A stretch of DNA of 534 bases from a phage. The notes below the pieces were generated by a model. That model was not told the DNA's origin. It made no database searches and saw only the letters and a program-made list of their open reading frames with translations. The stretch lies in the sequence record KM389366.1; one strand, written 5' to 3'. The position numbers were made by a program, and so were the translations under genes. Below, piece by piece: positions 1 to 534 of the stretch (its first letter is position 1; every line of letters begins with the position of its first letter).

Positions 1-2
1 CC

Positions 3-179
3 GAGTTTCGCAAATGCCTGGCGGAAGTGCGGGCGCAGGCGTTTAATGACCTTTGCTCGGTGTTCGTTAAGAACGCGACGGTTGTCGGGCTGGACGATGG
101 CGACATCGTTACGGTGAAAGAGGCGACGGACGCCCTGCTGGATTGTGCGGAACAGCTTCGCAAAGGAGGAAACAAGTGA
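3..179 (+). CDS. 3' end (58 codons plus stop) of a hypothetical protein, probably a prophage early-region gene; 5' end lies outside the window
   Basis: Frame 3 is open from the window start to TGA at 177-179 and translates to EFRKCLAEVRAQAFNDLCSVFVKNATVVGLDDGDIVTVKEATDALLDCAEQLRKGGNK*. Codon usage is mostly enterobacterial-preferred (CTG, GCG, GAA, AAA, ACG), and the stop overlaps the start of the downstream gene (GTGA), a typical operon arrangement. I recognise no family-defining motif. It is absent from the supplied ORF track, presumably because it has no in-window start. Confidence 0.6.
   Translation, partial: EFRKCLAEVRAQAFNDLCSVFVKNATVVGLDDGDIVTVKEATDALLDCAEQLRKGGNK
163..169 (+). promoter_or_regulatory. 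Shine-Dalgarno ribosome-binding site (AAGGAGG) for the downstream CDS
   Basis: AAGGAGG at 163-169 is a perfect match to the core anti-SD complement, with a 6-nt spacer (AAACAA) before GTG at 176-178. It lies within the last codons (K-G-G) of the upstream CDS. Confidence 0.65.
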
Positions 180-534
180 GCAAGATTGACTATCAGGCAC
201 TGCGTGAAAAGGCAGAGAAAGCAACGTGTGGTGATGGTTGGGGGCGTACATGGCAACTTGTTCCGTTCGGTGGCGCGTCTACTGACCCGCAGATGCTTAA
301 CAAGCGTGGGGAGATGTTCAACTCATGCAAGACATGGCTGAGGCTGGGCGGCATGCTGGATGACCAGGAAACAGCGGACGACCTGTCGGCGGCAGAGTAC
401 AAAGTTCGCGTGGACGGTAAAATCGTTATCGAACCGAAAGAAGATATCAAGGAGCGGCTTGGGCGTTCTCCTGGTAAAGGCGATGCGCTATTGCTGACGT
501 TTGCTTTCCCTGTGTCGAAGCGTCTGCGAATTCC
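176..534 (+). CDS. 5' portion (119 codons seen, continues past window end) of a probable Ead/Ea22-like family prophage protein; start GTG at 176
   Basis: Frame 2 is open from nt 71 to the window end with no in-window stop. GTG 176-178 is the only start with a strong SD and overlaps the upstream TGA as GTGA. Translation: MSKIDYQALREKAEKATCGDGWGRTWQLVPFGGASTDPQMLNKRGEMFNSCKTWLRLGGMLDDQETADDLSAAEYKVRVDGKIVIEPKEDIKERLGRSPGKGDALLLTFAFPVSKRLRI... The N-terminal block I-x-x-QALRE-x-AE-x-A...D-x-WG matches the conserved N-terminus of lambda Ea22 / Ead-like proteins as I recall them; this is from memory, not a search. Codon usage is coding-like with a few rare codons (AGG, CGA, CTA, CGG), typical of prophage genes. 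The family call is tentative; the CDS call itself is firmer. Confidence 0.72.
   Translation, partial: MSKIDYQALREKAEKATCGDGWGRTWQLVPFGGASTDPQMLNKRGEMFNSCKTWLRLGGMLDDQETADDLSAAEYKVRVDGKIVIEPKEDIKERLGRSPGKGDALLLTFAFPVSKRLRI

Follow-up and report, generated by a model that had tools for sequence, protein, structure and literature searches.

The window analysed here is a 534-base stretch of phage DNA (KM389366.1), both ends of which lie inside genes. One long reading frame occupies its + strand; the frame starts like an ead/Ea22-like gene and carries, further downstream, a block reminiscent of a nuclease motif. The locus therefore raises the question of what such a block is doing behind an Ea22-like start. 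The preliminary description of this DNA, made from the letters alone, placed the block within an Ea22-like protein and offered three readings, namely a chimera generated by recombination, an undescribed nuclease-like module of the ea region, or a coincidental short resemblance.

Composition of the reading frame

The window begins with the 3′ end of a conserved hypothetical gene (58 codons and a TGA stop, positions 3–179, + strand), recognised by its translation and by a match to PHROG 27745 (E = 1.8e-22). In phiV10-like prophages its place is upstream of the Ea22-like gene, and in one of them (L002) the homologous gene, 158 aa in length, is found directly 5′ of the Ea22-like gene. A GGAGG sequence at 165–169 on the + strand, which is likely to function as a Shine-Dalgarno site, is positioned 6 nt 5′ of a GTG start codon (176–178), so that the translation signals of the long ORF, here called the fusion ORF, appear intact. 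The stop codon of the upstream gene overlaps this start (GTGA, 176–179) in the same, unchanged manner as in the intact Ea22-like gene. The overlap, combined with a GGAGG 6 nt upstream, suggests translational coupling. The fusion ORF has 119 codons (translation of 176–532, VSKIDYQALREKAEKATCGDGWGRTW...DGKIVIEPKEDIKERLGRSPGKGDALLLTFAFPVSKRLRI) and is still open at the window end. Neither promoter-like nor terminator-like sites were found in the window, and there was no Rfam match in it, on either strand.

Of the Ea22-like gene, only the first 19 codons are present (176–232, + strand; VSKIDYQALREKAEKATCG), as judged by Pfam PF13935, PHROG and alignment, and the Ea22-derived portion of the fusion is limited to residues 1–19. 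The start of the fusion is identical to the starts of the Ea22-like genes in L002 and in a second relative, L003 (Uetakevirus contig KM389362.1), and in a BLAST search of complete E. coli genomes window positions 19–238 match sequences annotated as 'hypothetical protein | ead/Ea22-like family protein'. The fusion scores 29.9 bits with the Pfam model Ead_Ea22 (PF13935; cut-off 27) but aligns to profile positions 1–37 of 139 only, and it was by passing the cut-off through these positions that the ORF looked 'Ea22-like'. The true member of the family encoded by L002 scores 108 bits and covers positions 1–130. An Ead/Ea22-like protein is expected to span most of the PF13935 profile, and the fusion ORF does not. 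PHROG matches on the Ea22 side are likewise confined to residues 1–22. In alignments, the Ea22-like proteins of L002 and L003 diverge completely from the fusion past 'AEKATCG', and the nuclease-like block is absent from both. The likeness to the ead/Ea22-like family (early-region proteins of lambdoid and P22-like phages) thus consists of the first 19 residues and the context of the upstream gene, while past residue 19 the fusion is unrelated to it. The placement of the motif within an Ea22-like protein was accordingly mistaken, and the alignment that the preliminary description had proposed shows that the block is not a conserved part of the family. A module inserted into an otherwise intact Ea22-like protein was also considered and was rejected, since the likeness of true Ea22-like proteins to the fusion stops at residue 19.

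The remainder of the window (230–534, + strand) is, by DNA and protein identity, the 3′ portion of a gene for the terminase large subunit (TerL), codons 373–473 of 491, reading on in frame from the Ea22 start. The TerL-derived part amounts to 101 codons (230–532), the gene continuing past the window end, so that about 85% of the fusion ORF is a terminase fragment. Fusion residues 19–119 are identical at 101 of 101 positions to residues 373–473 of the 491 aa TerL of an E. coli prophage (L001), and at 100 of 101 positions to phiV10 TerL. At the DNA level, L001 TerL was the best match in a BLAST search of 5,426 complete E. coli genomes (98.4% identity over 230–534), the matching genes being annotated 'terminase'. 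The phage collection gave the same split into two arms, the right arm matching the large terminases of phiV10 and other members of Uetakevirus. Window 230–534 therefore corresponds to the 3′ part of the TerL genes of phiV10 (PhiV10p02, YP_512256.1) and of phiV10/epsilon15-like Uetakevirus prophages (e.g., WP_175610561.1), and the matching residues 373–473 include the block ...GRSPGKGDALLLTFA. What differs is that codons 1–372, which encode the ATPase domain along with the beginning of the nuclease, D309 and D362 included, are replaced in the window by 19 foreign codons. Full-length parent TerL matches PHROG 2 (terminase large subunit) with E = 1e-52; this match, the sequence identity and the family profile described below all establish homology of the fusion to the TerL C-terminal domain. 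With 101 of 101 residues identical to TerL, the block does not owe its appearance to a coincidental short resemblance.

The standard domain models do not recognise terminases of this type. No Pfam-A family matched phiV10/epsilon15-type TerL at E ≤ 0.01 (L001, 2885–4360; phiV10 itself, L004, 712–2187), the nearest being three unrelated families at E values of 0.03–0.19, under their own cut-offs, and no NCBIfam model matched at E ≤ 0.01. The fusion ORF likewise had no terminase match in Pfam or NCBIfam, and a single-sequence search of PDB sequences with full-length TerL gave no match. The Pfam search recommended in the preliminary description was thus negative for both the fusion and full-length TerL, while the family profile, run against the PDB, found Sf6 gp2. 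Terminases of the phiV10/epsilon15 type were identified only by PHROG 2, by the family profile search of the PDB and by a fold search, and many copies carry the RefSeq label 'hypothetical protein'. A word-index protein search with the 119 aa fusion returned TerL fragments of 67–202 aa only. The full-length 491 aa TerL, abundant in E. coli genomes, was missing from these matches, and full-length relatives came from the search of representative proteins.

The junction

Base-by-base comparison with L003 placed the junction at a GGTG microhomology (230–233, + strand) that is common to both parents: the left parent agrees with the window up to position 233 and the right parent from position 230. 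If a 1 nt gap is allowed, the shared sequence can be written as GGTG[T]ATGGT, with 9 of 10 positions matching. In L003 both arms occupy one strand, separated by 3,865 bp. Window positions 1–238 correspond to KM389362.1 322–560 (98.3%), and positions 230–461 to 4416–4647 (100% over 232 nt, to the contig end). The left arm has three mismatches to this contig in 229 bases and the right arm none in 232, counts that are compatible with a single parent genome. The TerL ORF of L003 starts at 3300, and position 4416 is the first base of its codon 373, which is joined in frame to codon 19 of the Ea22-like gene.

Compared with L003, the missing segment comprises the Ea22-like gene apart from its start, four small ORFs, the gene for the small terminase subunit (TerS; L003 2629–3303) and TerL codons 1–372. 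The related prophage L002 shows the same succession, with the hypothetical gene, the Ea22-like gene, small genes, TerS and TerL following one another in one orientation. In an intact relative, then, the two arms share a strand and are co-linear, and in the window they meet at a simple breakpoint, as expected of a deletion junction. Of the earlier proposals, a chimera generated by recombination is borne out, its arms coming from the Ea22-like gene and TerL. The undescribed nuclease-like module of the ea region is instead the 3′ end of TerL, moved next to the Ea22 start by the 3,865 bp deletion.

Read most simply, the junction means that a phiV10-like genome lost a segment through an intramolecular deletion mediated by microhomology. 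The 4 nt GGTG would have been the site of illegitimate recombination or of replication slippage, linking codon 19 of the Ea22-like gene with codon 373 of TerL and removing the rest of the Ea22-like gene, the four ORFs, TerS, the TerL ATPase domain and the first 40% or so of the nuclease domain. The join is in frame by chance, and the Ea22 ribosome-binding site and GTG now head an ORF of about 137 aa, made up of 19 Ea22 residues and TerL residues 373–491.

The junction was not found elsewhere. BLAST searches revealed no place with at least 80% coverage of the window in the 5,426 complete E. coli genomes, and none in 50,697 phage records. An exact 42-mer and a degenerate 23-mer spanning the junction had no match in GTDB species genomes, IMG/VR or JGI metagenomes, and an exact protein look-up with the 119 aa fragment and three guessed 137 aa full-length forms had none among 15 billion sequences.

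The TerL nuclease motif and the fusion product

The nuclease-like block, DGKIVIEPKEDIKERLGRSPGKGDALLLTFA, lies at 413–505 on the + strand and corresponds, by profile alignment and by the model described below, to the last beta-hairpin and two helices of the TerL nuclease domain. It is 31 residues long (fusion residues 80–110); the preliminary description had drawn it slightly longer, as 413–511, which is residues 80–112. The complete C-terminal domain of the parent TerL (P0004, 202 aa) was used as a query against 1.84 billion representative proteins and retrieved 3,762 relatives, mostly of 440–530 aa and with the domain at their C-terminus. An alignment of 40 sequences of this domain served both as the basis of a profile and as the input for AlphaFold. 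The profile matched Sf6 gp2 (PDB 5C10/4IDH) with E = 8e-11, and its top-scoring stretch, 'NGKLELMTKVEMKQKLGIPSPNLADALMM', falls on the nuclease-like block. The AF2 model of P0004 made from the 40-sequence alignment (pLDDT 90.8) has strands at domain residues 15–20, 29–35, 38–45, 69–73 and 92–94, and a helix at 51–65. When this model was searched with Foldseek, the Sf6 gp2 nuclease was the best match (E = 5e-10, TM 0.64), followed by the TerL nucleases of E217, G20c and P74-26, and then by RuvC. The structure prediction and fold search that had been suggested thus relate the parent domain to TerL nucleases and RuvC, and the proposed resemblance of the block to a TerL C-terminal or RNase H-fold nuclease motif is upheld both by the identity to TerL and by the Sf6 gp2 profile match.

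Sf6 gp2 is an RNase H/RuvC-like two-metal nuclease, the native length of which we take to be 470 aa. Its PDB chains have about 20 extra N-terminal residues (490 aa), and chain residues D264 and D464 are the D244 and D444 of the published numbering. Two metal ions are bound by D244, D296 and D444, the active site is reached by K428, and in one of the bound states N441 is a ligand of metal ion A (PMC4678813). The Sf6 stretch 'NGKLELMTK428...SPN441LAD444AL' aligns with the nuclease-like block, although identity to the phiV10-type parent domain is only about 19–20%. In this alignment, K88 of the fusion (nt 437–439, + strand) is equivalent to TerL K442 and Sf6 K428, G100 (nt 473–475, + strand) to TerL G454 and Sf6 N441, and D103 (nt 482–484, + strand) to TerL D457 and Sf6 D444, the third catalytic Asp. 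The other two acidic residues, TerL D309 (in GVDPA, aligned with Sf6 D244) and D362 (in FIDFG, aligned with the Asp of 'LWD', which was taken as Sf6 D296), are deleted from the fusion. The window ORF therefore differs from Sf6 gp2 in holding the equivalents of K428 and D444 without those of D244 and D296. Among 117 representatives of the family, D309, D362, K442, S452 and D457 are invariant (D309, D362 and D457 being D20, D73 and D168 in domain numbering), as is the Pro of the nuclease-like block. On these alignments, the block is a native TerL nuclease motif.

The Gly in the block had been described correctly: it occupies the position of the first Asp (SPG100-KG-D103), and the preliminary description suggested that nuclease function may be altered or lost as a result. 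A Gly is also the residue that the phiV10 subfamily has in place of Sf6 N441, and at TerL position 454 the 117 representatives have Asp in 82 cases, Asn in 24 and Gly in 11 (about 9%). The Gly in 'SPG' was therefore rejected as an inactivating lesion; being native to viable phiV10 and recurrent in the family, it gives no evidence of decay. Loss of nuclease function is still to be expected, as had been supposed, but its cause would be the deletion of D309, D362 and sheet strands rather than the Gly.

The fusion starts at domain residue 84 and so is without D309, D362, R34, the helix at 51–65 and four of the five sheet strands of the model. Of the catalytic triad (D309/D362/D457) it keeps D457 only, together with the active-site residue K442, and it does not contain a complete RNase H-like fold, which has a mixed beta-sheet at its centre and helices on the sides. 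The N-terminal ATPase (translocase) domain is absent, TerL 1–372 being missing. Modelled by AF2 from its single sequence, the fusion came out unfolded (pLDDT 39), a result to which little weight is given. The loss of D309, D362 and most of the sheet strands makes nuclease function of the product very unlikely, and on its anatomy the product should not fold as a nuclease or cut DNA. Since TerS and most of TerL are also lost, an element carrying this deletion would not package DNA by itself. The product is best regarded as the remnant of a broken gene and not as a new nuclease.

Comparable remnants and the origin of the junction

A textbook precedent is found in the cryptic prophage e14 of E. 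coli K-12, where ymfN (oweE'/aaaE') is annotated as 'chimeric replication protein/phage terminase YmfN' and combines the 5′ end of an early gene and the 3′ part of TerL in one ORF. Comparable in kind, ymfN results from a deletion in a prophage undergoing decay, but it differs in phage family, breakpoint and N-terminal partner (a replication protein instead of Ea22). It also resides in a well-characterised chromosome, whereas the junction of the window is known from 534 bases alone.

Further, independent cases were found. P0001 (L005 8001–8492, Logan ERR4221103_160) has an N-terminus of about 36 residues that is replication-protein-like, followed by TerL from 'YGTGLKSIGDGWG...' to the end. Its TerL portion starts at residue ~364, placing the breakpoint 9 codons upstream of that in the window. 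The P0001 locus is on a 39 kb contig carrying a rearranged phiV10-like prophage beside guaA, with the prophage head genes (portal, Bbp19, GP7) downstream and in inverted orientation. P0218 (282 aa, on a JGI contig) joins the N-terminal ~130 residues of TerS in frame to the TerL C-terminus ('DDLIMAKRIADF...'), an internal deletion in which the TerL ATPase domain is gone. For P0216, P0214, P0227 and P0007, what is left is a truncated TerL 3′ ORF, located on a complete genome or a long contig. From P0218 and these four it can be seen that the 3′ end of TerL survives prophage decay repeatedly. The breakpoints and N-terminal partners of the TerL remnants are all different, which is the expectation under random decay and not that of a selected architecture.

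Two other groups of unusual sequences were noticed among the relatives. P0064 (202 aa, representative library) has a TerL nuclease domain with systematic replacements (A>V, T>I/M, P>L, S>F, R>C/W and H>Y), all of which are C>T on the coding strand; it looks as though reads altered by bisulfite conversion or deamination had been assembled and their translation taken into the protein collection. In nine proteins of 810–850 aa (P0062, P0074, P0091, P0093, P0115, P0122, P0157, P0159 and P0200), the TerL nuclease domain forms the very C-terminal end; they exceed normal TerL by about 320 residues, which may reflect an N-terminal extension of TerL, a fused upstream gene or gene-calling merges.

The window is probably the junction of a deletion of about 3.9 kb in a phiV10-like (Uetakevirus) temperate phage or prophage, its product being a gene remnant. 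The main challenge to this reading is that the join was made in vitro, when templates switched or fragments were ligated as the library was prepared or amplified, or was a mis-join of the assembly, and is present in no replicating genome. The junction is indeed unique across all collections searched, its source is a fragment of 534 bases with both ends inside genes, and a microhomology of 4 nt is also typical of template switching. Random chimeras would have no preference for arms that are co-linear, on the same strand, in natural gene order and 3.9 kb apart, and an overlap of 4 nt is too short for a k-mer mis-join. The fragment is also unbroken for 229 and 301 bases on either side of the junction, flanks which, if the assembly was of the de Bruijn type, suggest that there was no competing intact allele, and long contigs document comparable deletions in vivo. 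A technical origin is accordingly regarded as unlikely, though it carries real weight, and we infer that a decaying prophage underwent the deletion in vivo and that neither library preparation nor assembly produced it.

A functional chimera, in which the in-frame fusion was selected, is hardly probable. It could act as an altered nuclease-like module of the ea region or as a dominant-negative C-terminal fragment of TerL, the latter blocking packaging in related superinfecting phages by binding to their portal or terminase. The fusion is in frame, although one in three joins would be so in any case, and a strong ribosome-binding site and start codon have been kept. The C-terminal tail region of TerL, which has been proposed to be a portal-contacting arm (PMC5727402), is also kept, and prophage-encoded systems that target terminase are known (bioRxiv 10.1101/2025.02.27.640495). 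TerL 3′ fragments do recur in genomes, but with varying breakpoints and N-terminal partners, and the junction of the window, being unique, gives no sign of conservation or spread. Only one catalytic Asp out of three is left, most of the beta-sheet has gone, and the unfolded single-sequence model (pLDDT 39) adds only a little to the case against selection. One specific version would have a defective prophage express Ea22(1–19)::TerL(373–491) from its early operon as a catalytically dead decoy against superinfecting phiV10-like phages, competing for their portal or terminase and so blocking packaging; very little credence is given to it.

The deletion junction is an ordinary finding. PhiV10/epsilon15-type TerL is missed by the Pfam and NCBIfam terminase models and has a natural Gly at the position of Sf6 gp2 Asn441, but neither of these opens a new biological question. 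The junction matters mostly for annotation: a pipeline would call this ORF an "ead/Ea22-like family protein", and the case illustrates that a prophage deletion junction can mimic a novel combination of domains.
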